64,000 nucleotides of DNA, from the NCBI RefSeq assembly GCF_009901585.1, contig NZ_WXYO01000002.1:92769-156768 (forward strand), given 5' to 3'. The DNA is from Poritiphilus flavus. Its GTDB lineage: Bacteria; Bacteroidota; Bacteroidia; Flavobacteriales; Flavobacteriaceae. The notes under the pieces are model-generated. The model was not told where the DNA came from, did no database searches, and was given only the letters and a program-made list of their open reading frames with translations. Each line of letters begins with the position of its first letter. The stretch's first letter is position 1. Position numbers and translations under genes: made by a program. Of this stretch, positions 2,728 to 60,760 are shown piece after piece.

Positions 2728-3240
2728 ATGTTGCCTAGATTAAATAAAGTAAAAGGAGTACATCCCGGTGCTCTGCTAAGAAGGGAGTTAGCGCTTAGGA
2801 ATATTAAGGGTTCTGACTTAGCGGAATCTGTTGATGAACATAAGCAAACAATAAGTGCAATCCTTAATAAGAGGAGGGATATCAATGCTAAACTTTCAAT
2901 CAAGCTTTCAAAAGTGTTCAAGGTGGAAAAGGATTATTTCATGTTATTGCAAGCAAGCTATGATGTCAAAAAAGCAAATGAAAGCCTTCAGAGGGCTTCT
3001 ACCAAAATGGAGAGTTTTAGAAGTGTTTTGTTTTGGGATACTGATATTGATAGAATTGATTGGAATAGAAATAGACATTCTATAATAAAGAGAGTTCTGG
3101 AAAGGGGAAATCACGCAGAAATAAGCGAACTTATTTCAATCTATGGAAAGAAAACTATTTCTAAAGAGGTCAGCAAAATTAAAGGAAGAACCCTTCCTTC
3201 ATTACGTAAGAATCTCAAAAAATATGACCTTGTCAATTGA
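2728..3240 (+). CDS. HigA-like XRE-family HTH antitoxin domain with a ~75-aa C-terminal extension
   Basis: 'VHPGALLRRELA…SDLAESVDEHKQTISAILNKRRDI' matches the HigA HTH_3 signature 'hPGe.L'. 4-bp overlap with the next gene. Confidence 0.6.
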   Translation: MLPRLNKVKGVHPGALLRRELALRNIKGSDLAESVDEHKQTISAILNKRRDINAKLSIKLSKVFKVEKDYFMLLQASYDVKKANESLQRASTKMESFRSVLFWDTDIDRIDWNRNRHSIIKRVLERGNHAEISELISIYGKKTISKEVSKIKGRTLPSLRKNLKKYDLVN

Positions 3241-3875
3241 TGAATTTGCATTTTAATACTGTTTCGAACCTCCTTATGACTTCCCTTGACAAGTTGATGG
3301 AGATCGATGAGTTGGACGAATTTCGGCTCGTTGGAGGTACTTCCCTGAGCTTACAGATGGGGCATAGGGAATCTGTGGATATTGATTTATTTACAGACCA
3401 GGAATACGGAACCGTAGATTTCAATAAAATTGACGAAATACTCAGAAAGTCCTTTGTATATGTAGACTCACTTCATTTAGGCGACGTAACTATCGGAAAA
3501 TCCTATTTTGTTGGAGAAAATCGAGAAAACCTGATCAAATTGGATTTGTTCTGCACAGATAGTTTTGTATTCCCAATAGTTCAACACAATAATCTAAGGA
3601 TGGCCAGTATGGAAGAGATCGCTGCGATGAAATTAGAAATTATTGGACAGGGAGGACGCAAGAAAGACTTCTGGGATCTACACGAATTGATCGGCCGATA
3701 TTCTCTAACTGAATTACTGGAATTCTATGTTCGAAGATATCGATATGGTTATACTCAGGATGAAATAAAACAAAAGCTACGTGATTTTAGTCAAGCTGAA
3801 GATGACTTGCCTCCAATATGTCACAAAGATAAAAGTTGGGAATTGATTAAATTGGATTTTGAAGACCTTGTATAA
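3237..3875 (+). CDS. Nucleotidyltransferase, AbiEii/AbiGii-toxin (DUF1814-like) family
   Basis: 'LVGGTSLSLQMGHRESVDIDLF' = minimal NTase motif G[GS]x9-13DxD. Size 212 aa. Translationally coupled to the upstream HTH gene. Confidence 0.55.
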   Translation: MMNLHFNTVSNLLMTSLDKLMEIDELDEFRLVGGTSLSLQMGHRESVDIDLFTDQEYGTVDFNKIDEILRKSFVYVDSLHLGDVTIGKSYFVGENRENLIKLDLFCTDSFVFPIVQHNNLRMASMEEIAAMKLEIIGQGGRKKDFWDLHELIGRYSLTELLEFYVRRYRYGYTQDEIKQKLRDFSQAEDDLPPICHKDKSWELIKLDFEDLV

Positions 3876-18966: not shown

Positions 18967-20112
18967 TTGACTAATTTTGTTCGAATGGTTCTCTCTAAAA
19001 CATTGAAATCCATAATCGCATTTATTAGCAGGTACAAATTGTATCATCTGGCATTTTGGTCTTTGTACCACTACTTCTGGTGGGCACTCATGAGTGGTAG
19101 CGCGGTTGAGGCGGTGCAGAATATCTTCTTTTCAGCATATTCTACAAAGTTTATTTTCTATGTGGTAATGCAGGCATTAGGGGTTTATTTTAATCTGTAT
19201 TTCTTAATCCCGCGGTTTTTACAGAAAGGGAACTATTTGGTTTACATCCCGATGTTATTACTGACAGTGCTTACTACTTCAGCCGGGATTATTGGGGGTT
19301 ATTATGTCAATGCTGCCGTGGTGGGCCTCCCTTTTGAAGAGCTTTTTAAGATAGCACCTACAGAGTTCTTTACTTTATTCAAAAGCAACGCGCTACCATC
19401 AACCCTGGCAAGTATGACCCTGGCCATGAGTATTAAACTGACCAAGAACTGGATGGCCTCTGAAAAGCGCAGAAATACCATTGAAAAGGAAAAACTGCAA
19501 ACCGAACTTAAATTTTTGCGTTCCCAGTTCAATCCTCATTTCTTGTTCAATACCATTAATTCCATTTTTGTGCTGATACATAAGGACCAGGATAAAGCCT
19601 CAAACTCTTTGGCAAAATTCTCTGAATTGCTTCGATATCAATTGTATCAATGCAACGAACCTTTTATTCCTCTGGAACAGGAATTGGATTATCTAGTCAA
19701 TTTTATTGAACTGGAAAAGCTAAGGCAAGAGTCGGAGCTTTTGGAATTAAATGTTGATCTGGACAAAACAACTTCCCTCACTTTGGAAATCGCCCCTTTT
19801 CTAATGATACCTTTTGTGGAAAACGCTTTTAAGCATGTTTCGTATCATAAAAACGCTAAAAATTGGATTGATATCCAGTTACGACTAGAACAAAGCAACT
19901 TACAGCTAATGGTCTCTAATAGTAGGAATCCCCTTGTAGTTGAAAAGGAAAATGGAGTTAATGGGATAGGTTTGGCCAATGTAAAGCGCAGGCTGGAGTT
20001 ACTGTATCCGAACGCCCATAAGCTGGAGATCATTAAGGATAATCTGCAACACGCCATAAAACTAGATCTTAAACTACAACAGCTTGAAGTTGTAAAATCT
20101 CAAATAGCCTGA
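18967..20112 (+). CDS. LytS-type sensor histidine kinase (His_kinase PF06580 + HATPase_c) with membrane N-terminus
   Basis: 'FLRSQFNPHFLFNTINSI' is diagnostic of LytS/YehU-family kinases. Confidence 0.8.
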   Translation: MTNFVRMVLSKTLKSIIAFISRYKLYHLAFWSLYHYFWWALMSGSAVEAVQNIFFSAYSTKFIFYVVMQALGVYFNLYFLIPRFLQKGNYLVYIPMLLLTVLTTSAGIIGGYYVNAAVVGLPFEELFKIAPTEFFTLFKSNALPSTLASMTLAMSIKLTKNWMASEKRRNTIEKEKLQTELKFLRSQFNPHFLFNTINSIFVLIHKDQDKASNSLAKFSELLRYQLYQCNEPFIPLEQELDYLVNFIELEKLRQESELLELNVDLDKTTSLTLEIAPFLMIPFVENAFKHVSYHKNAKNWIDIQLRLEQSNLQLMVSNSRNPLVVEKENGVNGIGLANVKRRLELLYPNAHKLEIIKDNLQHAIKLDLKLQQLEVVKSQIA

Positions 20113-20116
20113 CAGA

Positions 20117-20839
20117 ATGATACGATGTGCTGTAATAGATGATGAACCCCTGGCTCGGGAATGTTTGGTGAATTACATCCAAAAAATTGATTTTTTGGAT
20201 TTGGTAGGTGAAGGGCCAGACCCTACTGCCTTGTTGAATATTGCAAATAGGCAAACGCTGGACCTTGTATTCCTCGATATACAAATGCCGATCATGACCG
20301 GAATTGAGTATTTAAAGTCAACCAAAGTGAGGCCAATGGTAATCCTGACCACTGCGTATCCCAGCTATGCACTTCAAGGATTTGAATTGGACGTCCTGGA
20401 TTATATGGTCAAGCCCATAACCATGGAACGATTCCTAAAAGGTGCCAACAAGGCGAAGGACTATCTTTTGCTTGCTAAGGGTGACAATAATGCCAATAAG
20501 AGCGGCGCTCCTCCGGAATATTTTTTTGTGAAGTGCGAAAGTGTATATGAAAAGATATTCTTTGATGAAGTGGAATATGTGCAGGCACTGCAAAATTATG
20601 TGGTCATATACACTTCAGGCAGCAAGTACGTAACGCTTATGTCTATGAAGCGCATAGAGTCGCTTTTAGGAGCTTCGCAATTTATTAGGGTCCACAAGTC
20701 CTATCTGGTTGCATTGGACAAAATACAAAGTGTAGAGAATACGCGATTGCATTTAACTTCAGCGACCATTCCCCTAAGTCGAAATTATAAGATTAATGTC
20801 TTTGAACACGTTCTGAACAAATCGTTTTTAAAGAAGTAG
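20117..20839 (+). CDS. LytR/AlgR-family response regulator (REC + LytTR DNA-binding domain)
   Basis: REC 'CAVIDDEPLA…LVFLDIQMP', C-terminal LytTR. Confidence 0.85.
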   Translation: MIRCAVIDDEPLARECLVNYIQKIDFLDLVGEGPDPTALLNIANRQTLDLVFLDIQMPIMTGIEYLKSTKVRPMVILTTAYPSYALQGFELDVLDYMVKPITMERFLKGANKAKDYLLLAKGDNNANKSGAPPEYFFVKCESVYEKIFFDEVEYVQALQNYVVIYTSGSKYVTLMSMKRIESLLGASQFIRVHKSYLVALDKIQSVENTRLHLTSATIPLSRNYKINVFEHVLNKSFLKK

Positions 20840-46482: not shown

Positions 46483-46992
46483 ATGATGAGAACACTCTTT
46501 ACCAGCATTTTTCTGCTTGCCAGCGTTAATTTGATGCTTGCTCAGCAGGAGAATTGCGGATGTTGTACCGAAGATCATACGGCATTTGATTTCTGGGTTG
46601 GCAGTTGGACCGTCACGAATGCGGATGGTACAGCCGCCGGGCAAAACACTATAGAAAAAATTGAGAATGGCTGTGTATTAAAAGAAAGCTGGAAAAGTGC
46701 CAAAGGCCAGTTCACCGGAAGCAGCATGAACTTCTTCAATAAACAGTCCGGTTCCTGGGAGCAACTCTGGATTGATAACCAAGGCTCACATCTTAAGCTC
46801 AAAGGAAACCGGAAGGGCAATCAAATGATCCTTAGCTCTGATGAATTTACCCATACCGATGGAAAAACCTATGTAAACCGCATTACCTGGACCATGAACG
46901 AAGACGGAACGGTCCGTCAGCTTTGGGAGGTATTGCATCAGGGAGAAGTGGCCAATGTGGCCTTTGACGGCCTTTATAAAAGAGCCAAATAG
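46483..46992 (+). CDS. Hypothetical secreted protein
   Basis: Signal peptide. No domain recognised. Confidence 0.4.
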   Translation: MMRTLFTSIFLLASVNLMLAQQENCGCCTEDHTAFDFWVGSWTVTNADGTAAGQNTIEKIENGCVLKESWKSAKGQFTGSSMNFFNKQSGSWEQLWIDNQGSHLKLKGNRKGNQMILSSDEFTHTDGKTYVNRITWTMNEDGTVRQLWEVLHQGEVANVAFDGLYKRAK

Positions 46993-47107: not shown

Positions 47108-47914
47108 TTAGTTTATACAGGGAGCCGGATTAGGCCCAAATGGACCCCTGACATCCCCGTCCGGTGTTTGTACCGTATACACATGTTCCTCTTCAAAGGC
47201 ACCGCTGGTATAGGCAATAACCAAACTGGTTGTGCCCTCTGGGACTTCGATGATGTGCGTGGCTGCGTCACCTTGCCCGGCGGTTATGGTATAATCAGTA
47301 CCCACCCCGTCTATTTCGAAGGTCAGGAAGGCTCCATCCCAACCATCTCCATATAGATCTTCCATTTCTACGATCCAGGTACCCGGGACGGTCGCGTCGG
47401 AGATCGGAGAGCATTTTATAAGTACAATGAAATTAAATGCCTGTCGTTGTTCCGGTTGCCCGGTAATACTTGCGGTAAAATTGTCAAAGGTGAATACAGA
47501 ACCGTCCGTACCCGTTGCTGTTCCCAGGAATCGAATAAAGTCTCCACCTAAAATATCATCCGTAGAGATCCCCAGTGCGGCAGCAACGTCTGTATAGGGT
47601 ATAGAGATCTCACTTGGAAAACTGGTTATAGTGGTAAGCGAGACCGTATCACTTGCCACTCCACCGGATTCACGGCTAACACTTAGTTCCCAGGAAGCTA
47701 CGTTGTTGTTCAGCGCACTTACGGTGGCATTCAGGGAGCTGCTCGCAATATCTCCCTGAGCCACTATAGGCTCTTCAACAATGATCCGTACATACGGTGC
47801 TTTCGTCTCATCACCCCCTAACAGATTCAGTGGTTTTTTGTCTTCGTCATCGCAGCTCATAAAGGCAATGGCCCCGATAAGCAGTACGATAATGGATTTT
47901 ATTGTGATTTTCAT
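47108..47914 (-). CDS. SusC/SusD-locus-associated surface lipoprotein (SGBP-like). Start taken at 'MKITIKS'
   Basis: Lipobox 'FMSCDD'. Position immediately downstream of the SusD-like gene. Confidence 0.5.
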   Translation of the reverse strand: MKITIKSIIVLLIGAIAFMSCDDEDKKPLNLLGGDETKAPYVRIIVEEPIVAQGDIASSSLNATVSALNNNVASWELSVSRESGGVASDTVSLTTITSFPSEISIPYTDVAAALGISTDDILGGDFIRFLGTATGTDGSVFTFDNFTASITGQPEQRQAFNFIVLIKCSPISDATVPGTWIVEMEDLYGDGWDGAFLTFEIDGVGTDYTITAGQGDAATHIIEVPEGTTSLVIAYTSGAFEEEHVYTVQTPDGDVRGPFGPNPAPCIN

Positions 47915-47940
47915 TTTTCTTAAATTTTTATATGGTTGAA

Positions 47941-49665
47941 TCAATCTACAAAACCTTCCGGATTGGTATCCCAGAATACCGGTGTAACCGGACCTGGTTT
48001 TTGGGTGATGTTCGTATTGTTGTCCGAAGCCACCTGGGGATACCAGTGTGAGCGTATAAAGGTACCCGGATCTGACAAGAAAAATGCAGGTGTCAGATTA
48101 TCTGGTTGACCGGTTCTTCTATAAGTATTGTAGGCCTCGATTCCGTTGCCCCATAAGGCGATCATGTATTGTTCTACAATAATACGCAGTTTGTCGGTAT
48201 CTGAACCTGCGTCATAAGCGCTGAGTATATCGTCTACATGATCGTCTATATCCGTCTGTGTAGGGATTAAGCTACTGCCAGCGGCCAGAGTTGCCCCAAA
48301 AGCCATTACTGTACCGATAGATTCCCTTACCCCGTTTTCCAGGTAGGTTCTGGCATTTCCTGTTGTCCCTAAGGTCAAAGCGGCTTCAGCAAGCATGAAA
48401 TTGGTATAGGAAGACATCAAAATTGGTGAGATCCCTGCTCCGATCAGGCCTTCGTTAACTGCGGAGGAACCTGATACATTCCTAAAAGAATCGTCATCAA
48501 AAGGACCACCTACCGGATATACCCCAAATTGGGTCCTGAAGGCATCGTCTGGAGGGATACCGTCATTGTCCAGGAAGTTCCTGCCCCAAAGACCGTCAAA
48601 GCCATTGATATTTGGTACCAGGCAATAGGGCTCATCAGCGGCCCACCATGAAGGTCTTGAAATTTCGGTAACACATTCTTTGGTCACCACATCCGCACCG
48701 GAGTAGTCCCCTACCTGACGGTAGAAATAATAGCGGGTACGCGGATCGGCATCGCCGTATTGGTTAACCAGCAAATTCATATAATAGTTGCACATATAGA
48801 AATCCGCATCCGGCCCGGCACCGTCAAAATTCTGTGCAAAATACGGGTGTCTGCTGTCTGGTGCCGCGAGGCTGGTAGCCCACTGAAACTTCAGATCATC
48901 GCCTGAATCCAGGATGAGCTGGTTGCCGGCGATCAACTCGTTGATCACTGTTGTGGATTTAGCAGCACCGAATCCTTCTTCATTAGCAAGCCGGGATTGC
49001 AAATACAGCTTTAATCTCAGTGTATTGGCTGCTTTTACCCATTTACTTTTATCTCCGCCGTAATACAGATCATTTGTGGGCAGGGCGAATTCCTGTCTGC
49101 CCAGGTTGGAGATAGCGTCGAGCAATAGAAGATCCAAAGCAGCATATATGGAAGCGCCGGAATCTACTACCGGATTCAGTATGCCTTCTCCACCGCTTAC
49201 CGCTTCTGTATAAGGTACGTCCCCAAAAAAGTCGACCATGGTCATCATTACATAGGCCTCCAGGATCTGGCCAATGGCGATATGGGTATAGAATTCGCCT
49301 TCCAGCGCAAGCGGATTCATGGTGCGGATGTCTATAAGGGCGCGGGCATAAACATTGTCCCACAACCTGTCATAGTCTACCGGGTCATTAATCTCCCTGT
49401 AGGTAGGGCCGTTAGCCCCGTTAAGCATCCGTACGGGTTCCATACCAAACTGGCTCAGACCGTATTCTTCCTGATCTTCTTCTCCGGAATGAATTTCAGC
49501 CACCTGAATTTGTATCTGGTTCAGGAAGAAATCAACGCTTGCCTGTTCAGGGCTTAATTCATTCGGACTGGGTACTACCCCCAAATCTGTGGTATCGCAG
49601 CCCAGCAAGCAGAAGGTAGCCGTGGTGATAAGCGCAATACTTAATTTATTATATATTTTTTTCAT
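47941..49665 (-). CDS. SusD/RagB-family nutrient-binding outer-membrane lipoprotein
   Basis: Lipobox 'LLGCD'. SusD-like TPR region. Immediately follows the SusC-like gene. Confidence 0.85.
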   Translation of the reverse strand: MKKIYNKLSIALITTATFCLLGCDTTDLGVVPSPNELSPEQASVDFFLNQIQIQVAEIHSGEEDQEEYGLSQFGMEPVRMLNGANGPTYREINDPVDYDRLWDNVYARALIDIRTMNPLALEGEFYTHIAIGQILEAYVMMTMVDFFGDVPYTEAVSGGEGILNPVVDSGASIYAALDLLLLDAISNLGRQEFALPTNDLYYGGDKSKWVKAANTLRLKLYLQSRLANEEGFGAAKSTTVINELIAGNQLILDSGDDLKFQWATSLAAPDSRHPYFAQNFDGAGPDADFYMCNYYMNLLVNQYGDADPRTRYYFYRQVGDYSGADVVTKECVTEISRPSWWAADEPYCLVPNINGFDGLWGRNFLDNDGIPPDDAFRTQFGVYPVGGPFDDDSFRNVSGSSAVNEGLIGAGISPILMSSYTNFMLAEAALTLGTTGNARTYLENGVRESIGTVMAFGATLAAGSSLIPTQTDIDDHVDDILSAYDAGSDTDKLRIIVEQYMIALWGNGIEAYNTYRRTGQPDNLTPAFFLSDPGTFIRSHWYPQVASDNNTNITQKPGPVTPVFWDTNPEGFVD

Positions 49666-52600: not shown

Positions 52601-52929
52601 CCCTGGGCCGTCACTACGACCTCTTCGAGCGCCTGGGTGTCTTCCTCCATTTGGACGTTCATGGTGTTGGAACTGCCTACGAGCAATTCCACGGTTTGTT
52701 GTCCTAGATAAGAAAAGACCAGTGTCTGGCCCTCGCTCACCTGGATGAGGTAGTTACCGTCAAAATCAGATTGTACACCGGTAGTTGTTCCTTTAATAAC
52801 AATGTTTACTCCTGGTAAGGGAACGCCAAAGCTGTCTGTAATGGTTCCCGAGACCGTTTTTTCTTGTGCATATGCCCAGGAGGTCCCCAATAGGAATAGC
52901 ATAAGCAACCGAATCCATGTTTTTCTCAT
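49690..52929 (-). CDS. SusC/RagA-family TonB-linked outer-membrane transporter
   Basis: N-terminal carboxypeptidase-regulatory-like domain 'GTITDSFGVPLPGVNIVIKGTTTG', Plug, 22-strand barrel. Terminal 'IRASF'. Confidence 0.9.
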   Translation of the reverse strand: MRKTWIRLLMLFLLGTSWAYAQEKTVSGTITDSFGVPLPGVNIVIKGTTTGVQSDFDGNYLIQVSEGQTLVFSYLGQQTVELLVGSSNTMNVQMEEDTQALEEVVVTAQGIVREKRSLGYAVTTVESELVESRPEADIARVLNGKVAGVNITSNNGLSGSGTNIIIRGYSSATQSNQPLFIVDGVPFDSGTNTQTDFLDGNTESSRFLDIDPNTIESVSVLKGLSATVLYGNRGRNGVILITTKNSVSGETASKNEISVTQSIFASKAIVPRYQNNYGGGFHQGFGYFFSNWGPRFDRTDDDGIANAAQFLSDGPGGVALLRHPHNFIADPTLIAGFEDLLDDPYPYQPYNGVEEFFRTGFVSSTSLNVRGGSEKINFNANYGRTNDIGVTPGNEVLRNNFSLGGSAQLSNNFTVSGVFNFIRTGYKSPPNAVSTGSGAAFLGGAIFGDLLYTPRSVDLTNLPFQAADGRSVYYRSGNDIQNPYWTVANSKTTQDTDRFLGNMSATYQMNDWLGLTYRLGLDTYTELNSYGQNRGGVDGPVLGILRTSAVRNTIWNHDVILTANKDINEDLNLNVTLGLNSRRDIFQQDGLESQGQLVFGVLEHFNFTTPSSTNSFSGTAMNQDFEENLVGVYLDATLGYKDFLYLNVVGRNDWSSTLERENNSLFYPGASVSFVPTSAFENMQGDVLNYMKLRFGYGSSAGFPTPFNTRDVLTLGARTLVDLNGTVISGNTVNDALGNQDLKPERVEELEIGIDTRLFNRLNLNVSLFDKTTTDLITDRTLDSSTGFLSTFVNIGEIKSQGVEVDYDLVVLRGGEDKFGFNLAGNFTTIETTVTDLAEGTNNILLTDAIAGEAANYAVEGRPFGVFLGTTFLKDANGNRIVGNNGLYLVDNNISEIGDPNPDWTTAIIPTFTYKGFSLSANIQYRHGGDIYSVTSAALIGRGTVDADDPIDREAQYVLPGVLQDGTPNNIAISSTEFGFNTFFGGDINELSVFDGTTIRVQEASLGYSLSRQMLENTPFGSLSFTLSGFNLWYKAINFEKNLRYDTNASSTGVGNGQGIDFITGPSTRRYGLTIRASF

Positions 52930-52934
52930 GTTTT

Positions 52935-53150
52935 ATAATGTTTAAGTTAGCGTGCAAAAATGCGGCTCAGGGTGTTGGCTGATTAATTCAAAAACCGCTA
53001 TGGCTAAAGAATTCGATTGTGAGGTAAGTGTTTAGGAGCTGCATTATTGACATTAGCTAGTTTTCATGCCTAATGTAAGTTGGTGTATGAGTAAATGGGG
53101 AAATACTGATAAACGTTTACTTATCCGATGAATGCTTACGGATGTTTTAC
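52935..53150 (-). promoter_or_regulatory. Conserved ~215-bp control module abutting the SusC-1 start codon (copy 1a)
   Basis: Blocks A-D are shared with copies at 53320-53528 and 58803-59026. Block D ataaacgtttacttatccgatgaatgcttacggatgttttac. Confidence 0.6.
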
Positions 53151-53319
53151 CTTTTCTAACATTTTGTAGCCCTTCTGTGATATTGTTATTGGCGAAAAGC
53201 GGGTTTTTTGGTTGTTTTTCGCCGGTTTTACCGATTTAACAGGAAAAGTGCCATAGATTGTACCTAATCTGGCTTTAAATGGAAATAGATAATTCTGATA
53301 CTGAAGTCCTGCTGATGAA

Positions 53320-53528
53320 GAGGAAATGTAAATTGCAGCCCTGAATAATTTTGATAGCTAATTCAAATAATTACAGTCTAAAAAATGAGACAGAAGTTTT
53401 TTTAGAAGTAAGTGATCAGGGCTGCTTTACATTTAACAGGTTGTTTATTCAAAGAAAGGATGTCTGCTCCTAATTACAGGAAAGACTTATAAACGTTTAC
53501 TATTCCGATGAATGTTTACGCCTGTTTT
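53320..53528 (-). promoter_or_regulatory. Second, orphan-looking copy of the control module (copy 1b)
   Basis: …ctaattcaaataa…aaaaatgagac…cttataaacgtttactattccgatgaatgtttacgcctgttttac. Confidence 0.55.
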
Positions 53529-53551
53529 ACTGAGAATAACGCCAGATTTCA

Positions 53552-54262
53552 TTATAAGTTATAATAATAACTTAAAATAGTGACCATATCATTTTTCTCA
53601 TTCAACTTTAGACCTTCCTTTTTTATCTTTTTATCAATGGTTTTACCTTTATCGCCGAATGTCTTAATAAGTGTTTTCTTCTTTTTAGGCAATAAGACCA
53701 GTTTTTGTCCCTCAGAATCTTGCTCAATGAGGTAAAAGCTGTTTTTATTTTTTACGAATTTGGCAGGTATTGGCTGATCGTAACTGCTTTTCGCCGGTTT
53801 GGCCTCAACGTAACGTATATTTTCTTTCATATAGAGCATGAACTTATCATTGGAAAAGACCTTTTCGAGAAAGACTTTTTCCTGTTTGCCATTTTCAGTT
53901 TCTACAGGATGGATCTCGAAAATACGCTCGGAGCCGTCCCTTAGTTTTACACTATAAGCTTTAGACATGGTAAGTCCCAGAATATTTTCTCCCTGTTTGA
54001 CTTCAATAACGTTTTCCACGGCATTAAAGCGCACCATCTTAGTTTCCTTGATATTGTTGATTTGGGCGGGCAGAAAATCTTCATACAAATATGGACTTCC
54101 TTCAGTTTCATCGTATTTGATGGTATTGGTACCAACAAAGAATAACAGTTCATTAAAGGAGTCATTACGCGGCCGGTTTATTTGAGCATTAAGACAGGGG
54201 GCCAGAGCAAGAGCAAAAACAACAGTTATCAGTACGGAATTTTTCATAGTTCTTTTAAGCAA
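53552..54262 (-). CDS. Hypothetical secreted protein
   Basis: Signal peptide. K-rich. No recognised domain. Confidence 0.4.
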   Translation of the reverse strand: MLKRTMKNSVLITVVFALALAPCLNAQINRPRNDSFNELLFFVGTNTIKYDETEGSPYLYEDFLPAQINNIKETKMVRFNAVENVIEVKQGENILGLTMSKAYSVKLRDGSERIFEIHPVETENGKQEKVFLEKVFSNDKFMLYMKENIRYVEAKPAKSSYDQPIPAKFVKNKNSFYLIEQDSEGQKLVLLPKKKKTLIKTFGDKGKTIDKKIKKEGLKLNEKNDMVTILSYYYNL

Positions 54263-54297
54263 AAAACCACCAGGTTCAGGGAAACTCTGGTGGTTTT
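54261..54297 (-). terminator. Intrinsic terminator between the SusD-2 gene and the downstream gene
   Basis: Minus strand: aaccaccag-agtttccctgaac-ctggtggtt followed by TTTTTTGC. Confidence 0.6.
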
Positions 54298-54327
54298 ATT
54301 ATTTATTTAATGGTCTGAAAAAGTATT

Positions 54328-55761
54328 CTAGAAGTTCCCTGGGTTCTGAGTAATGTTAGGATTGTTGGTAAATTCATCTTCAACAATCGGGAAGATTACC
54401 TTGTCAGCTCCAGGGGCAGATTCCGGTCCACCGCCTGGTCTCAGGTTTTGGTTATTTCTGAGCAGGTCCATTCTTCGATGTCCTTCAAAGCAGAATTCCT
54501 TTCTTCTTTCCAATAGGATAGCATCCAAATCAACGGCACCCAATGCTGGAAGTCCGGCTCTTGCACGAATGGCATTTACATCGTTTAGCGGGGTGTCACC
54601 TATAGAAGTACCTCCTCTTAAATTAGCCTCCGCTCTGGTCAGATACATTTCCGCCATACGCAGTATCATACCGTCTGAGGCGTTATTAACAACATCTGGA
54701 TACTTGGTGGTAAAAAAGGTGTTGTTACCCCCCGCGTCCGTTGCCGCCTGTGAAAGCTCATCAAATCTTCTGTCACCAGGTTCAGCCGCGAAAGTATCGA
54801 TAAGGTCCTGGCTAAAGGGTGCATCACCTCTTCCACCTGGTGCCGGGTTATAGAAATTTACATAGACTTCATCACTGATCGTTGGCTCCTGAGGTCCGTC
54901 CGTCGGAGTGTTTAAAGCAACAAATAAGTTCTCCGGAGAACTGGGATTGCTGTCGTAAAAATCGTAATTAGGAGTAAGGGAGAAAACTCCCGATGAAATC
55001 ACCTGATCTGCGAGATCCGCTGCCTGGCTCCACTGTTCGCGATATAGATATAATCTGGACAAAAGTGCTCTTGCCGCCCCTGCGGTAGCACGACCATCAG
55101 TTCCGAAGGGCGCTATATTAGTGGGGTTTTCAGGCAAACTTGCAATAGCGTCCAAAAGATCCTGCTCTATCAAGCCGTGTACTTCATTTACTGTAGAGCG
55201 TTCCAATTGGAAATCAGACAGCTCACTTTCTGCAAGGAAAGGCTGTAGTTGAAGGGGCACTCCTAAGTTGGAACCCTGAGCGAACTGGTACGGCTGTGCG
55301 AACAGATTTACCAATTGAAAATAGGTCAATGCCCGGAGGAATTTAGCTTCTCCTATAAACTTCGCTTTTTCGGTAGCCGAAAGATCCGGAAGATCTACAT
55401 CCGGAAGGTTTTGAACAATATTGTTTGCTGCTCCAATAAGCTCGTATCCATCCAGCCAGATGTTATCGATAGAGGTATTGGTAGCCAAAGTCTCATATTG
55501 ATCTACTTCCTGAAGTGAAGGGAAACTCCCTACGAAATTTACATTGTCCGACATGAAATCAGACATCAGTTGGGCCATCCCGTTAAGGTCACCACTCTGA
55601 TTTTTACTATAGATACCTACCACAGCTCCATTGATAGAACCTCTGGTATTGAACACCGTAGCAGCTTCAACACTGTCTTCCGGAACAACATCCAGTCGGT
55701 CTTCACATGAAAAAGTGATGAGTAGTCCGAATAATATTGCGATTAATTTTATTGTCTTCAT
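54328..55761 (-). CDS. SusD/RagB-family lipoprotein
   Basis: Lipobox 'ITFSCED'. SusD-like fold motifs. Confidence 0.85.
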   Translation of the reverse strand: MKTIKLIAILFGLLITFSCEDRLDVVPEDSVEAATVFNTRGSINGAVVGIYSKNQSGDLNGMAQLMSDFMSDNVNFVGSFPSLQEVDQYETLATNTSIDNIWLDGYELIGAANNIVQNLPDVDLPDLSATEKAKFIGEAKFLRALTYFQLVNLFAQPYQFAQGSNLGVPLQLQPFLAESELSDFQLERSTVNEVHGLIEQDLLDAIASLPENPTNIAPFGTDGRATAGAARALLSRLYLYREQWSQAADLADQVISSGVFSLTPNYDFYDSNPSSPENLFVALNTPTDGPQEPTISDEVYVNFYNPAPGGRGDAPFSQDLIDTFAAEPGDRRFDELSQAATDAGGNNTFFTTKYPDVVNNASDGMILRMAEMYLTRAEANLRGGTSIGDTPLNDVNAIRARAGLPALGAVDLDAILLERRKEFCFEGHRRMDLLRNNQNLRPGGGPESAPGADKVIFPIVEDEFTNNPNITQNPGNF

Positions 55762-55779
55762 TGCTTAATTTTTTTTGAA

Positions 55780-58700
55780 TTAAAACTGTATTCTGGCTCC
55801 TAATGAATAGGTTTTTGCCTGAGGTGCGGTGAAGAAAGACTCACCCTGGAATAGTGGATCGATATCATCCGTTACTTCCGGGTCAATTCCTTCCATTTCA
55901 CTTCGCTTAATAGTAAAGAGGTTGGTGGCAGTTCCGTAGAAACGGACACCTGAAAATATACCTCCTAGTCGATCAAGCACCTTCTGTGGCAAACTGTAGC
56001 CTAAAGTTACGTTTTTAAGTCGCAGATAAGAAGCATCCAATTGTTGTTGTGTAGAACGCTGGTTAAACAGATTAAAGGTAGAACTTGTCGGACTGGGTAG
56101 GAAAGCATTGTCTCCAGGTTGTCTCCAGTAGTTCAGGTTCTGCCTTCTGATATTTACAATACCCCCGATAGCGTCATTACCGTCCGCAAATCGCAAACCA
56201 TCGATAACCACATCGTTTCCGTAAGAGTAGTTCATCAGCACAGAAAGGTCAAAATCCCCCCATCGGATGGTATTCGTGATACCACCGGAAAAATCAGGTA
56301 GCGGGCTTCCTGTTACCACCCTGTCCGCAGACCCCGGATTGGTTGTAATATTACCGTTTACATCCAGCCATTCTGCATCTCCCGTTTGCGGGTTAACGCC
56401 TACATATCGGATCAGGAAGAAGTTATTCAACGATTCTCCTTCGATTGCCCTCTGTATAGGACCATCAATAATCCTTCTGCCTTGCGCATCTGTAGCAGCA
56501 TCTTCATTGAGTTTAAGAACCTCATTATCTATGGTAGTAAGGTTGAAATTTAAACGCCAGTTGAAGTTTTCTGTCTGCGCGATCACACCGCTAAGGTCAA
56601 ACTCCCATCCTGAGTTTTCCATCTCACCGATATTCCGACTAATGGTTGCAAATCCGGTTTGTGGAGGAAGCACCTGGTTAAGTAGCAGGTCGCTGGTCGT
56701 TTTCTTAAAGTAAGAAACATTGAAATTCAGTCTTCCACTAAACATGGTAGACTTGAATCCGATATCCAAAGTCTCACTTTCCTCCCATTTCAGGTCCGGA
56801 TTGGCAGGTTGCCCTGGAATAATCCCGGACTGACCGGTGTAATCCGCAATCGCTCCAGCACTGTAAAGTGCCAAAGATGGGAAGGTCCCTAAACGGTCAT
56901 TACCTACAGTACCGATACTTGCTCTCAAAGACAAATAATCAAAGAAGTTAAGGTCTTTGATGAATGTTTCCTCGGAAAGGATCCAACCTGCAGCTGCAGA
57001 CCAGAAATAACCGAATCTATTATTTGCCCCGAATCGAGAAGAACCGTCACGTCTTATAGATCCTTCTACTAGGTACTTTCCTTTATAGTCATAGGAGACC
57101 CTGCTAAAAAGACCAAAAAGCCTTGATGGGAAACGATCTCCGTTTAATACTGTTGGTGTAGAACCGGAACCAAGATTTCTAAGGTCGTCTGTAAGGAAAC
57201 CTGTAGAGAATACATTCAGACGGGTTCTCATGGTCTCTTCGTAGTTAAGACCTAATAATACGTTTAAATTATGATCATCTCCAAAGGTGTTCGTATAATT
57301 TAGCGTTTGGTTGGTCAACCATCGCTCTTCACGTACACTTACCTGCTGACCAAGTCCACCAGGACTGTTGAATTCCGCTTCTCTAGTAGTTTCTTCAGTG
57401 TCCAGACGGTCCATACCGAATTCCGAACGCCAGGTAAGGCCAGGTAGCGGAGTAACTTCTGTAAAGGCGTTTCCGATGACCCTGAATGTTTTTAACTCCC
57501 TGTCGTCTAATGCTACACGGGCGAAGATATTAGGGATAAAGGAACCGGATTGTACAAAGTTGCCCTCGTCGTCAAAAGCCCTTACTACCGGACTTTGCAG
57601 GAAAGCAGTTGTAAACGGCGCATCGATCTCATTCTCAATAAAAACCCTTGCCAGTCTGTTATTGGTAACCCCAAGGTTCATGCCGGCCTTTAACCAATCT
57701 GTCACATCTGTGTCAATATTAATCCGAGCGGCAGCTCGCTGCTGGTCGTTACCTATGATAAATCCTTCCCGGTCCGAATAGTCAAGTCCGAAGAAGAATG
57801 AGCTTTTTTCTCCACCTCCTCGTACTCCGAGATTGTAGTTCTGAGAAATTCCTGTACGCTGTACTCCTCCAAGCCAGTCAGTACCAGGATCTCCGATGGA
57901 TCCAAGTCCCAGGTCTTCCGGAGAAACCGGGGTTCCCTGTTGCAGCGTAGCTACTTCGGATTTGAATTGTCTGAATTCATCGGCCGTCAGTATTTCCGGT
58001 ACATCGGTAGATTCTGAAAACTGAGTGTTTACATCCAGGGTAACGGTAGTTTTGGAATTTCTTCTACCTTTTTTAGTGGTGATCAGAATAACCCCGTTTG
58101 CACCCCTTGACCCGTAAATAGAAGTTGCCCCTGCATCCTTAAGTACAGTAAGCGACTCTATATCATTAGGGTTTACATAAGAGAGGGGGTTGATATCTGT
58201 ATTACCACCCCTGTTTAATGTATTTCCTTCAGTATCTGTGATAGGAACCCCGTCGATCACGATAAGGGGCTGACTACCGGAGTTAATGGAGTTTACACCT
58301 CGCACCCTGATCACAGCCGCAGAACCGATAACCCCAGAGGCATTTACGATCTGGGTACCGGCGGATTGTCCCTGAAGCAGCTGATCCGCAGATACTACCT
58401 GCAGATTCTCTATGGCTTCTTCCTTAACAATACCTACGTTCTGGATGATCTTTCGTTCTTCCTGGTTACCATAACCGATGACTACTACTTCTTCCAGTGC
58501 CTGAGCGTCCTCCTCCATTTGTACATTTAAGGTGCTGGAAGCTCCCACAGTCCGTTCCGTGGTACGTTGACCTAAATAGGAAAAGACCAATACATCGCCC
58601 TCGCTCGCGCTAATGGCATAATTCCCGTCAAAATCCGATTGAGTCCCGGTTGTCGTACCCTTGATCACAATGTTGACCCCGGGTAGGGGAATGTTGTTTT

Positions 58701-58797
58701 GGTCTGTGACCAGACCTGTAATTGTTTTTTCTTGTGCAAAAGAAAGTGTCATCCCCATGAGGAATAACAAGCACAGCCAGTTACATTTTTTTTTCAT
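55780..58797 (-). CDS. SusC/RagA-family TonB-linked outer-membrane transporter
   Basis: Paralog of 49690..52929 ('GLVTDQNNIPLPGVNIVIKGTTTG'). Confidence 0.9.
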   Translation of the reverse strand: MKKKCNWLCLLFLMGMTLSFAQEKTITGLVTDQNNIPLPGVNIVIKGTTTGTQSDFDGNYAISASEGDVLVFSYLGQRTTERTVGASSTLNVQMEEDAQALEEVVVIGYGNQEERKIIQNVGIVKEEAIENLQVVSADQLLQGQSAGTQIVNASGVIGSAAVIRVRGVNSINSGSQPLIVIDGVPITDTEGNTLNRGGNTDINPLSYVNPNDIESLTVLKDAGATSIYGSRGANGVILITTKKGRRNSKTTVTLDVNTQFSESTDVPEILTADEFRQFKSEVATLQQGTPVSPEDLGLGSIGDPGTDWLGGVQRTGISQNYNLGVRGGGEKSSFFFGLDYSDREGFIIGNDQQRAAARINIDTDVTDWLKAGMNLGVTNNRLARVFIENEIDAPFTTAFLQSPVVRAFDDEGNFVQSGSFIPNIFARVALDDRELKTFRVIGNAFTEVTPLPGLTWRSEFGMDRLDTEETTREAEFNSPGGLGQQVSVREERWLTNQTLNYTNTFGDDHNLNVLLGLNYEETMRTRLNVFSTGFLTDDLRNLGSGSTPTVLNGDRFPSRLFGLFSRVSYDYKGKYLVEGSIRRDGSSRFGANNRFGYFWSAAAGWILSEETFIKDLNFFDYLSLRASIGTVGNDRLGTFPSLALYSAGAIADYTGQSGIIPGQPANPDLKWEESETLDIGFKSTMFSGRLNFNVSYFKKTTSDLLLNQVLPPQTGFATISRNIGEMENSGWEFDLSGVIAQTENFNWRLNFNLTTIDNEVLKLNEDAATDAQGRRIIDGPIQRAIEGESLNNFFLIRYVGVNPQTGDAEWLDVNGNITTNPGSADRVVTGSPLPDFSGGITNTIRWGDFDLSVLMNYSYGNDVVIDGLRFADGNDAIGGIVNIRRQNLNYWRQPGDNAFLPSPTSSTFNLFNQRSTQQQLDASYLRLKNVTLGYSLPQKVLDRLGGIFSGVRFYGTATNLFTIKRSEMEGIDPEVTDDIDPLFQGESFFTAPQAKTYSLGARIQF

Positions 58798-58802
58798 ACG
58801 AA

Positions 58803-59026
58803 TTAAAGTTTGAGTTATAATGTAAGTGGCAGCCCTGAAAGGTATTGATGACTAATTCAAATAAATACCCAAAAAAATGAGACCAAAGTAGTGTCTTTAA
58901 GGATACTTTTTCAGAGCTGCATTATTTACATTAGCTAGTTATGGCGTCAAAGTAACGGGCTGTACCAGAAATTGGAGGAAAGTCTTATAAACGTTTACTT
59001 AGCCGATGAAAGTTTACGCTTCTTTT
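58803..59026 (-). promoter_or_regulatory. Third copy of the control module (copy 2), abutting the SusC-2 start
   Basis: Blocks A-D are colinear with copies 1a and 1b. Confidence 0.6.
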
Positions 59027-59031
59027 ACGTT

Positions 59032-60546
59032 TTACGACCTGACGTAGATCTTTTGGTACTCACTGGGAGTCAGTTGAGTATCTTTTTTGAAGGCTTTATT
59101 AAAAGTTACTTTATTGTTGTAACCGACTTCATAAGCAATATCTATGATATTTAAATTCTTCTTGCGATCACTATCCAGGATTTTCTTGGCTTCTTCAATC
59201 CTGTACTTGTTGATAAGTTCATGGAAACTCATCTCAAAGTGTTCGTTGATCACCTGTGAAGCGTTGTGTCTTGTAGTGTTTAATCTGGAGGCCAATAATT
59301 CCAAGCTGATATCGCTCTCTTTGTAGATCTTTTCCATTTCGAAAAGGGCTATGAGCTGATCCTTCAGTTCTATGGATAAACTGCTGGTGAGGCCGGACTT
59401 TTTGTACTTAAAGAATAGAGGATTCTTATAGGCGAAGGTTCCGCTGAAAACATTTGGTTGCACATTGGCGGAATAGCCGATATACAAAACCATAAGTGCC
59501 ATACTGATTACCTGCATGTGGTAGAAGAATCCCGAATTGATATGATTGGTTATTAAAGTTCCGTATACGGCATAGGTAATAATGTAGAATACATGAATAA
59601 AATAGATATTGCGCTGCCAGATCCTGTTCTCCGTCGGTAACTCCTGTTCCTGCTTGCTCTTCAAATAGAGCTTGCGGATAAAGAACGCGTAAATGCCTAA
59701 AGACAGTAGCTTTAGGGAGACAAGGATGACCAGGTAGGAGGAGTCTCCAGGATTGTAACCGGCAATGGTACGTTCCAGCATCAACTGTAGTTTATCGTCT
59801 GCCGGCAAGGCGTAAATAGGCAGTATATAAAAAAGGAACAACACTGTGGGCAACAGATGTAGTAGGTCTATTTTCTTGAATTTATGCTGCTGCGTGATTC
59901 GCTTAAAATAAAAGTATAGCAGTGGGCCATACAGAAATATAAATACCGTCGACATCAAATAAGAATGTGGGAACTCATACTGATAATTCGTGATCAGCAG
60001 GCAGATATGAAAAATGAAGAAGGAGTGAATGAAAACAAACAGGCTGATCAGTATCCGGGCTACGAAGTCGATCTTTCGGTTAAAGTTGATCACCACGGCA
60101 ATGTAAAAGCCGACAAACGCAACGTATAAATACACTAAGGCCCAGCCGTTTATCTTTGGGGTATATTTCCTGATCACCTCTTTGAATTCAGGGGCCTTTT
60201 GAATTGTGGTAAAGCCTTCACTATAGAGGAAACTCGTGTTGAATTCCTTTAAAAAGTAGCGTTCTATATGATCTGCCGCCTCGCTTGCTTTTCCCAGGCT
60301 TGCAGCGCTAAGCGCCATGTTTCTGTAGATCTTGGCACTGTCTCCTGATGCGCCTGGAAGTGCGGCTTTGAGGGATGGTACGGGTTTTTTGTTTACAACA
60401 GGGGGTTGAATAAGATCGGCCTCAGCCAGGCTTTGAATATTATTTTGAAAACTTTCGCCAAAATAATCTGCATTTCCTATCGGGGCTATAGGATAACCAT
60501 ATCCGACATAGAAAAGAAACAATAAAACAAGGCGAACCCGTCCCAT
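59032..60546 (-). CDS. Membrane-embedded AraC-family regulator: signal/TPR-like N-domain, ~6 TM helices, C-terminal AraC HTH
   Basis: 'TRHNASQVINEHFEMSFHELINKYRIEEAKKIL…' AraC HTH. Hydrophobic core region. Confidence 0.7.
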   Translation of the reverse strand: MGRVRLVLLFLFYVGYGYPIAPIGNADYFGESFQNNIQSLAEADLIQPPVVNKKPVPSLKAALPGASGDSAKIYRNMALSAASLGKASEAADHIERYFLKEFNTSFLYSEGFTTIQKAPEFKEVIRKYTPKINGWALVYLYVAFVGFYIAVVINFNRKIDFVARILISLFVFIHSFFIFHICLLITNYQYEFPHSYLMSTVFIFLYGPLLYFYFKRITQQHKFKKIDLLHLLPTVLFLFYILPIYALPADDKLQLMLERTIAGYNPGDSSYLVILVSLKLLSLGIYAFFIRKLYLKSKQEQELPTENRIWQRNIYFIHVFYIITYAVYGTLITNHINSGFFYHMQVISMALMVLYIGYSANVQPNVFSGTFAYKNPLFFKYKKSGLTSSLSIELKDQLIALFEMEKIYKESDISLELLASRLNTTRHNASQVINEHFEMSFHELINKYRIEEAKKILDSDRKKNLNIIDIAYEVGYNNKVTFNKAFKKDTQLTPSEYQKIYVRS

Positions 60547-60730
60547 TTAGTGATTGATGAATTAGCGTTTGCATGAAATTAGTTAATATATGTGCCCAGA
60601 AATCTTAAATTTCTCTTAAAAAAGGTAAGCCCCGATAATAATTTACCTTTTAGAAGTGGCCGGAATCCCCTTGTAACCAGCTAAATAGGATAATTATCAA
60701 TAATATGGAAGAATACAGAGAATATGTTAA

Positions 60731-60760
60731 CAAAAAACCCCGACCGGCAGGTCGGGGTTT
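60731..60760 (-). terminator. Rho-independent terminator
   Basis: Minus strand: aaccccgacc-tgcc-ggtcggggtt followed by TTTTTTG. Confidence 0.7.

Follow-up and report, generated by a model that had tools for sequence, protein, structure and literature searches.

Why should a segment of about 215 nt occur three times beside two SusC/SusD operons, with one copy standing apart from either SusC gene? The question is raised by a 64,000-nt stretch of the Poritiphilus flavus genome (hereafter the window), in which copies 2 and 1a of this segment precede the genes that we call SusC2 and SusC1, and copy 1b lies between the two operons. We consider it probable that each copy is a transcription unit under the control of an AraC-family regulator, and that its product is a structured leader for SusC or else a small RNA paralogous to it. 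Marine Bacteroidota rely chiefly on SusC/SusD systems to capture nutrients, and the control of these systems is poorly understood where sigma/anti-sigma or hybrid two-component regulators are lacking. Control by an extracytoplasmic function sigma factor or by trans-envelope signalling was considered for this locus and rejected, as neither SusC carries an STN domain and no sigma/anti-sigma pair lies nearby. The locus would offer a compact, testable circuit, composed of a membrane-bound one-component sensor of the AraC type, a defined operator and promoter, and a structured RNA that appears in leaders and also as a gene of its own.

Three copies of one module

All of the relevant genes lie on the minus strand, so that in the sense of transcription the four blocks of each copy read D, C, B, A and then ATG, and the order across the locus is regulator, copy 2, SusC2 operon, copy 1b, a 160-nt spacer, copy 1a and SusC1 operon. 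The three copies aligned across ~215 nt on the minus strand, in the same sense as the SusC genes. The original prediction, made from the letters of the window, had described three colinear copies that share these four blocks. The copies themselves were confirmed far above chance (coordinates in Table 1): the block D core TTCATCGGNNNAGTAAACGTTTAT occurred exactly 3 times in the 64 kb and gave 0 matches in 100 shuffles, and the palindrome TAAACGTTTA occurred 3 times in the window compared to 0.05 expected. The start codons at 58797 and 52929 likewise bore out the placement of copies 2 and 1a immediately 5' of SusC genes. The set of four blocks held for copies 2 and 1b, while copy 1a lacks block B and has degenerate blocks A and C. 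Block B (GTCTCATTTT in the sense orientation) and the hairpin TTTGAATTAGnnATCAA, termed P3 below, were found only in copies 2 and 1b.

Block D as a predicted operator

Block D reads GTAAA-N6-GTAAAC-N-TTCATCGG-N4-GTAAACGTTTATAAG-N2-TTTCC and stands 21 bp (±1) upstream of TTAYTTTG. The consensus of 53 modules from the window and its relatives was GTAAAa.aa..GTAAactTTcaTCGGaaaaGTAAACGTTTATAAG.cTTTCC-(21 nt)-TTAcTTTG, in which GTAAA(C) repeats at offsets 0, 11 and 30, together with an inverted copy, keep a constant distance from the -7-like box; the spacing between block D and this box was fixed in 39 of 41 modules. The palindrome and GTTTAC half-sites proposed originally therefore need partial revision. 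The palindrome is real, owing to the inverted repeat, but the layout is one of three direct repeats and one inverted repeat, and the half-sites are not ~21 bp apart: the start-to-start spacing of GTAAA(C) is 11 and 19 bp.

The flavobacterial sigma-A promoter has the -7 consensus TAnnTTTG at -12 to -5, with a -33 TTG ~19 bp farther upstream (PMC9723704), and a -33/-7 promoter architecture is also reported in PMC13472631; a scan for E. coli-type promoters was uninformative. If TTAYTTTG is the -7 box, then transcription would start ~5 nt after it, near positions 58943, 53445 and 53066, the predicted operator would span ~-85 to -43, and TTTCC would lie at ~-38 to -34. The predicted position of block D is that expected for an activator site beside a weak -33 element. 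Its interpretation as an AraC-type operator was supported by sequence comparison: block D is the most conserved part of the 53 modules, it keeps a fixed distance from the -7 box, and its half-site recurs upstream of an AraC-family gene.

That gene, which is adjacent to copy 2, encodes a 504-aa protein that matched HTH_18 (E = 1.4e-17) and HTH_AraC at residues 418-499, as well as AraC-family entries of NCBIfam. Its translation consists of an N-terminal signal or transmembrane segment, a periplasmic stretch of ~110 residues, ~7 hydrophobic segments and a C-terminal cytoplasmic AraC helix-turn-helix (HTH). The ~110-residue stretch is TPR-like in homologues, and some orthologue clusters carry TPR matches. 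The protein is 100% identical to one from Poritiphilus flavus, and more than 120 orthologue clusters were found in marine Flavobacteriaceae.

The window contains 4 perfect occurrences of the 15-nt half-site GTAARYNWTYATCGG, each on the minus strand, compared to 0.33 expected with ≤1 mismatch. Three of these fall within the modules, and the fourth lies ~80-100 nt upstream of the regulator start codon, which suggests autoregulation. In the window, and in no fewer than 21 loci besides, the arrangement GTAAAnTATTATCGG-N3-4-TTAC is kept ahead of the regulator gene. Taken together, these findings provide good comparative evidence for the prediction that block D is a recognition site of the adjacent regulator, and that this protein regulates its own gene. 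At least 21 loci also keep, ahead of the orthologous regulator, a duplication of TTTAAGA and an invariant GCTAATTCATCAATCA just before the ATG. The tandem TTTAAGA...TTTAAGA lies between the operator and the 5' untranslated region (UTR) of the regulator (60570-60620 on the minus strand of the window, and in orthologous loci). It resembles the ATAAGACTTTCC end of block D, suggestive of a shared promoter-proximal element.

A conserved three-helix RNA follows the predicted promoter

Individual folds of 17 leaders gave one shared architecture, a three-helix RNA of ~110-120 nt. Its long outer helix, P1, pairs block C with block A; P2 is an inner hairpin that holds block B; and P3 is the short hairpin UUUGA-AUUAGYYA-UCAAA, with the nearly invariant loop AUUAG(UC/CU)A. 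Blocks A and C, which had been proposed as separate boxes, are accordingly not independent of each other, being the two arms of one long helix. Since MAFFT and RNAalifold applied to the raw leaders recovered the P1 core only, with P2 not positionally alignable, a covariance model with a hand-set structure (R1) was built from 11 sequences. This model matched 37 same-strand copies at 44-121 bits in 29 related loci, including many copies overlooked by the DNA pattern, and a promoter module precedes every one of them. In the window, the same-strand scores were 114.5 bits for copy 1b, 76.9 bits for copy 2 and, with filters off, 13.8 bits for copy 1a.

A structured 5' leader had been mentioned originally as an alternative to a binding site, and both folding z-scores and pair counts spoke in its favour. 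Each of the 35 distinct copies (35/35) folded better than its dinucleotide shuffles, with z-scores from -2.8 to -7.5 and a median of -5.0. In the model alignment, 85.9% of cells were paired compared to 34-49% when the partners were slid, P1 and P3 reached 92-98%, and 18 double-changed pairs were counted compared to 8.2 ± 1.6 in shuffles, 0 of 500 of which reached 18; a caveat is that the alignment had been fitted to the model. Among the most informative compensatory changes was that of GUAAA/UUUAC to GCUGG/CCUGC in one divergent copy (L030). A second divergent copy (L009) shows a C-G to U-A change, and a third (L014) has UACGC/GCGUA in P2. Support for P2 comes only from the individual folds. 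In P1, G-U pairs exceeded A-C mismatches (36 vs 13), a bias that points to the SusC-sense strand as the one functional as RNA.

These properties bear on the possibility that the leader senses a ligand as a riboswitch or attenuates transcription, with the stand-alone copies acting as decoys or terminated products. A conserved RNA that resembles a three-way junction does lie between promoter and start codon, its helices and junction sequences are strongly conserved, and inside P2 a small hairpin precedes the U-run of block B. That U-run, however, is paired within P2, and no hairpin with a U-tract was found as a terminator in 52800-53700. Rfam 15 at the gathering threshold returned only a tRNA elsewhere in the window and left the RNA copies unmatched, and an E-value search of 52800-59200 gave a chance miRNA match only. 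Moreover, the 3' arm of P1 stops 20-45 nt before the AUG, with no obvious expression platform, and the A/U-rich initiation region of SusC is unpaired; simple riboswitch-like occlusion is thus unlikely. Stand-alone copies that face a convergent gene, described below, would not be expected either. We consider a riboswitch or attenuator improbable, and continue to favour a regulator-controlled structured leader.

Other features of the leaders were observed. SusC codons 4-6 (AAUGUAA) were rejected as a partner for the P1 3' arm, since this pairing is not kept where the SusC N-terminus differs. The P1 5' arm of all RNA copies contains an AUG followed directly by UAA (AAUGUAAAG), a start-stop pair that lies at 58926-58931 and 53427-53432 on the minus strand of the window, and L2-type leaders add a three-codon open reading frame (ORF), AUG-CAG-CUC-UGA. 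A (G/A)ACUAACU box is conserved 20-28 nt upstream of long-type SusC starts, at 52945-52951 on the minus strand of the window and in L1-type leaders elsewhere.

The module stays with one gene neighbourhood

An exact scan for block D across 185,579 species genomes, one genome per species, returned 14 loci, all from marine Flavobacteriaceae. The genera are Maribacter, Saonia, Muriicola, Zeaxanthinibacter and Spongiimicrobium, and each locus has a single match ~205-250 nt upstream of an orthologous SusC. A relaxed pattern applied to metagenomes added 16 further loci, several with two modules. The order of AraC-type HTH gene, RNA and susCD was found in all loci examined, and complete genomes of Aggregatimonas and Maribacter keep the wider arrangement of purU, DUF4197, regulator, RNA/susCD, a 169-aa gene, pyrF and prfA.

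A dispersed repeat unrelated to SusC promoters, the outcome named originally as contrary to the prediction, was not seen: the exact scan was SusC-linked throughout, and with single matches that always fall in the orthologous SusC context, the element is not a dispersed repeat. The long inverted repeat formed by blocks A and C, and the several copies per locus, might still recall a mobile DNA element similar to a miniature inverted-repeat transposable element that has come to lie near SusC genes by chance. Such an element would hardly be limited to one locus per species genome in the same syntenic setting, nor would its orientation always match that of SusC. No target-site duplications were found, no copies occur elsewhere in the 64-kb window, and the G-U bias points to constraint at the level of RNA. 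We regard a mobile repeat as having next to no likelihood.

Stand-alone copies are conserved units

Copy 1b has no ORF before the next module in the ORF list, and the original prediction had viewed it as the possible remnant of a lost third SusC/SusD pair. Comparison with relatives contradicted this view, as stand-alone copies with complete promoters are kept in Maribacter, Saonia, Spongiimicrobium and several metagenomic relatives. Two types were distinguished by position. The upstream type, found in Maribacter, Saonia, Spongiimicrobium and others, has the regulator gene on one side and, on the other, a second module adjoining a long SusC (1079-1083 aa), and its P3 loop is usually AUUAGUCA. 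The downstream type follows the SusCD operon, has the P3 loop AUUAGCUA, and faces a convergent gene of ~150-169 aa with no ORF to lead (L015, L018, L021/22, L025, L028 and L032); in at least six loci, then, a full promoter module precedes the RNA and no co-directional ORF follows it, as expected of the gene for a trans-acting small RNA. Copy 1b belongs to the downstream type, except that in P. flavus a second operon with a more decayed leader (copy 1a) comes next.

Whether copy 1b is nonetheless an inert remnant can be judged from the same data. SusC1 and SusC2 are paralogous genes whose 5' ends share 73% DNA identity across 211 nt, and a SusC/SusD operon has clearly been duplicated together with its upstream region, so that the similarity of the three copies could have been inherited through operon duplication with no RNA function. 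Such debris would not be expected to occupy matching syntenic positions across many genera, still with operator, -7 box and three helices intact. Furthermore, stand-alone copies are better conserved than the copy 1a leader and score above true leaders against the model, no other copy in the window folds as stably as copy 1b (z = -7.2), and it is the copy 1a leader, rather than the "orphan", that is far more decayed. These findings largely refute the remnant explanation, which we consider very unlikely. Judged by this conservation, copy 1b is a gene-like unit as opposed to debris, and it is probably a small RNA.

The 3' end of this putative RNA was considered with regard to termination. A search for intrinsic terminators (a GC-rich hairpin with a U-tract) found 0 sites in 52800-53700, and most copies are not U-rich 3' of P1. 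This absence is notable because P. flavus does possess a canonical intrinsic terminator: a hairpin with a T-run, CCCCGACC-TGCC-GGTCGGGG-TTTTTT, follows the DUF4197 gene at ~60731-60758 on the minus strand. An 8-bp inverted repeat, GGCGAAAA...TTTTCGCC, lies at 53191-53223 in the spacer between the copy 1b RNA and the copy 1a operator, and is not followed by a U-tract. In Maribacter aestuarii (CP107031; locus L032, 18156-18275 on the plus strand), the end of the downstream stand-alone RNA coincides with the stop codon of the 169-aa gene that converges on it, and read-through would therefore be antisense to that gene. The orthologue of the 169-aa gene in the window lies at 46483-46992 on the plus strand.

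A proposed circuit and the P3 loop

We propose that the membrane-anchored AraC-family protein most likely binds block D and activates a weak Bacteroidetes promoter of the sigma-A type, composed of the TTTCC -33-like element and the TTAYTTTG -7 box, while regulating its own gene via the upstream half-site. The predicted transcript would begin with a tail of ~15 nt followed by the conserved three-helix RNA of ~110 nt, its ends being inferred. Copies 2 and 1a would each place this RNA at the front of a SusC/SusD operon as its 5' leader; copy 1b would yield it from a stand-alone small-RNA gene with the same promoter. As the copies share this promoter, regulator, transporters and RNA would be co-induced.

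The RNA may then act after transcription through the P3 loop. The loop is complementary to GCUAAUUCA in the regulator 5' UTR, ~11-14 nt before the AUG, and the same site was found in 20/21 RNA/locus pairs. In addition, loop AUUAGCUA is complementary to the leader tail UAGCUAAU in copies 2 and 1a of the window and in L008 and L025, and loop AUUAGUCA is complementary to the UGACUAAUU tail of L1-type leaders. The L1-type tail comprises an invariant G and a conserved 14-mer, (A/U)AUGACUAAUU(G/A)AA, ~5-20 nt past the -7 box, which is likewise complementary to loop AUUAGUCA (L001, L002, L003, L009, L010, L012, L015, L018, L019, L023 and L028). RNAduplex comparisons of the whole stand-alone RNA with leaders were uninformative, because the paralogous P1 arms cross-pair and dominate. 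We hypothesize from these complementarities that loop pairing with the regulator 5' UTR and with one or other of the SusC leader tails could feed back on the regulator and allow the two duplicated operons to influence each other.

Several observations weigh against parts of this proposal. TTAYTTTG agrees with TAnnTTTG at 7/8 positions, and the TTTCC element lies ~22 nt upstream of the -7 box rather than 19-21. With no U-tract terminator, an orphan copy before a leader could instead be a second, distal promoter within a long 5' UTR. At the level of structure, P2 is poorly aligned, with 57-66% of its cells paired, and there are few independent compensatory events, since P1 and P3 are nearly invariant in sequence. 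For the P3 loop interactions, a complementarity of 8-9 nt is not significant by its length, as ≥8 nt was found in 28% of control RNA/upstream-region pairs; the covariation argument is weakened by the coexistence of both loop variants in most genomes; and L004, L005 and L014 have no matching leader tail.

A possible link to RNA-guided transcription by dCas12f-sigmaE

Hoffmann et al. (Nature 2026, PMC13472631) described abundant "hth-associated" non-coding RNAs (ncRNAs) of Flavobacteriia that lie beside HTH genes and upstream of susCD and rpoE-dcas12f. The 5' ends of these ncRNAs overlap conserved targets of dCas12f guide RNAs; the ncRNAs were proposed to be negative regulators, and their promoter and function were stated to be unknown. 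They occur upstream of susC in Flagellimonas taeanensis, a marine member of the Flavobacteriaceae, and several such loci per genome are possible (PMC13472631). According to a companion structure paper, some 278 bp separate the F. taeanensis target from susC, which lies downstream of it.

The RNA described here could therefore be an hth-associated ncRNA, a transcribed part of which (the leader tail or the P1 5' arm) is kept as a dCas12f guide-RNA target that recruits sigma-E. SusC would then be switched on when an RNA-guided start 46 bp past the target, inside the RNA, bypasses the hairpin, and the full-length RNA from the AraC-controlled promoter would be the negative element. The arrangement is similar, with an HTH gene, RNA, susCD and multiple copies. 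P1 is more conserved in sequence than structure alone needs, L1-type leaders keep CAGCUCU in the 5' arm even where its pairing partner is lost, and the invariant G with its 14-mer, the tail of leaders in 11 loci, formally fits a guide target of 5'-G plus ~14 nt; a second role as guide-RNA target would explain the extreme conservation of the 5' half of the RNA. In contrast, phmmer searches with RpoE and Cas12f, run on all ORFs of the window and of 30 loci, found none that resembles a sigma factor or Cas12f, and two further 21-kb loci lack sigma or Cas12f among their Pfam-annotated genes. Moreover, PMC13472631 reports no conserved motifs near the targets beyond the heteroduplex, whereas a strong operator and -7 box are conserved here, and a check by hand found no module 14-mer with the self-pairing of the F. 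taeanensis guide (positions 2-4 with 12-14). On balance, we regard maintenance of the RNA as a guide-RNA target as possible but unlikely. Simple membership of the hth-associated ncRNA family, compared by description, may be somewhat more probable than that.

Beyond the favoured identification of leaders and a small RNA, it is tempting to suggest that the stand-alone copy is a leader paralogue that acts in trans from the same regulator-dependent promoter, either in a P3-loop circuit or, should the dCas12f-sigmaE link hold, with its invariant 5' half as a guide-RNA address and its hairpin as a gate that is bypassed only when RNA-guided transcription begins within it. We offer this suggestion tentatively and regard it as doubtful.

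Features of the locus and its surroundings

Both pairs consist of a TIGR04056 (SusC/RagA) receptor followed by a SusD-family lipoprotein, and no carbohydrate-active enzyme genes were seen adjoining either of them. The final gene of the SusC2 operon had no match in Pfam or NCBIfam. Features of the locus are listed in Table 1.

Table 1. Coordinates of genes, predicted control elements and RNA features in the window.
Feature	Position	Strand	Basis or remark
Operator-like inverted repeat GGTAAATTATTATCGGGGCTTACC with block D half-site	60624..60647	-	Sequence; ~80-100 nt upstream of regulator start
GCTAATTCA in regulator 5' UTR	60558..60566	-	Within nearly invariant GCTAATTCATCAATCA; complementary to UGAAUUAGC of P3 hairpin; weak statistics
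Membrane-anchored AraC-family regulator gene, 504 aa	59032..60546	-	Pfam and NCBIfam matches, residues 405-504
Copy 2 predicted operator (block D), GTAAA-N6-GTAAAC-TTTCATCGG-N4-GTAAACGTTTATAAG-ACTTTCC	58977..59028	-	Predicted span ~-85 to -34
Copy 2 -7-like box TTACTTTG	58948..58955	-	Fixed offset from block D
Copy 2 structured RNA, predicted 5' leader of SusC2	58812..58937	-	Covariance model 76.9 bits; z = -5.6
Copy 2 P1 5' arm (block C)	58910-58932	-	
Copy 2 P2 with block B	58874-58883	-	
Copy 2 P3 hairpin	58845-58861	-	
Copy 2 P1 3' arm (block A)	58819-58839	-	
SusC2, 1005 aa	55780-58797	-	TIGR04056 (808 bits)
SusD2, 477 aa	54328-55761	-	SusD Pfam families
ORF of 236 aa, final gene of SusC2 operon	53552..54262	-	ORF list
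Copy 1b predicted operator (block D)	53479..53530	-	Sequence
Copy 1b -7-like box TTTCTTTG	53450..53457	-	Fixed offset from block D
Copy 1b stand-alone structured RNA, candidate small RNA	53318..53438	-	Covariance model 114.5 bits; z = -7.2
Copy 1b P1 arms	53415-53433 and 53326-53345	-	
Copy 1b block B	53382-53391	-	
Copy 1b P3, loop AUUAGCUA	53351-53367	-	
Copy 1a predicted operator (block D, second repeat GTAAGC)	53099..53150	-	Sequence
Copy 1a degenerate -7-like box TTACATTA	53071..53078	-	Offset from block D
Copy 1a predicted leader of SusC1, diverged RNA version	52930..53066	-	Fold; weak model match, 13.8 bits
Copy 1a 5' tail CTAGCTAAT	53052-53060	-	
Copy 1a register-shifted P1	53036-53048 with 52956-52968	-	
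Copy 1a P3-like hairpin	52979-52991	-	
SusC1, 1079 aa	49690-52929	-	Pfam/NCBIfam and ORF list
SusD1, 582 aa	47941-49689	-	Pfam/NCBIfam and ORF list
ORF of 278 aa in SusC1 operon, no function assigned	47108-47944	-	ORF list

Farther away in the window, an HTH_3/DUF6922 protein followed by an AbiEii nucleotidyltransferase toxin (2728-3875, plus strand) forms a type IV (AbiE-like) toxin-antitoxin pair. A 949-aa hybrid sensor with 7TMR-DISM, HisKA, HATPase, receiver and AraC-HTH domains (4081-6930, minus strand) constitutes a second, distinct AraC-HTH regulator, and a His_kinase gene of the LytS type precedes a LytTR response regulator at 18967-20839 on the plus strand.

Comparison with known systems

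Operators of the AraC/XylS family, such as araBAD I1-I2 and the RhaS/RhaR sites, consist of repeated half-sites that abut the -35-equivalent region, with the regulator gene adjacent. The module described here resembles them in its repeated half-sites upstream of a -35-equivalent, its adjacent regulator gene and the related site at the promoter of that gene. It differs in that the regulator is embedded in the membrane by ~7 transmembrane segments and has a TPR-like portion in the periplasm, the promoter belongs to the Bacteroidetes -33/-7 type, and the putative operator has three direct repeats and one inverted repeat, spaced at 11 and 19 bp. A further difference is that the units predicted to be controlled include a non-coding RNA.

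Small RNAs linked to polysaccharide utilization loci are known from gut Bacteroides, namely antisense RNAs of the DonS type, GibS, and RbpB-associated small RNAs that act on susC leaders. The candidate RNA would share with them the post-transcriptional modulation of SusC/SusD-type operons in Bacteroidota. In contrast to those RNAs, which are antisense to susC or unrelated to their target leaders, it is a sense-strand paralogue of SusC leaders that shares their promoter and operator. Structured 5' leaders and riboswitch-derived small RNAs offer another parallel, in that one fold is used in cis and possibly also as a short transcript; here, there is no recognisable ligand pocket or expression platform and no Rfam match, and the separate copies have a promoter of their own.

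The hth-associated ncRNAs offer the closest likeness: they too are non-coding, neighbour the gene of an HTH regulator, precede susCD in Flavobacteriia, and occur in several copies per genome. Neither rpoE-dcas12f nor a guide RNA was seen in the sequences covered by the analysis. The regulator here is a co-directional 504-aa membrane protein of the AraC type, whereas PMC13472631 gives no HTH family, and in place of a promoter stated to be unknown, an operator and -7 box precede every copy. An AraC-type operator joined to a leader or small RNA is thus of a kind already known, while the RNA family itself is absent from Rfam and was possibly flagged in 2026. If the RNA is indeed an hth-associated ncRNA, then the present findings would supply that family with a candidate promoter and operator, a secondary structure, stand-alone copies and pairing targets, together with a concrete model of how an RNA might oppose or gate RNA-guided transcription.

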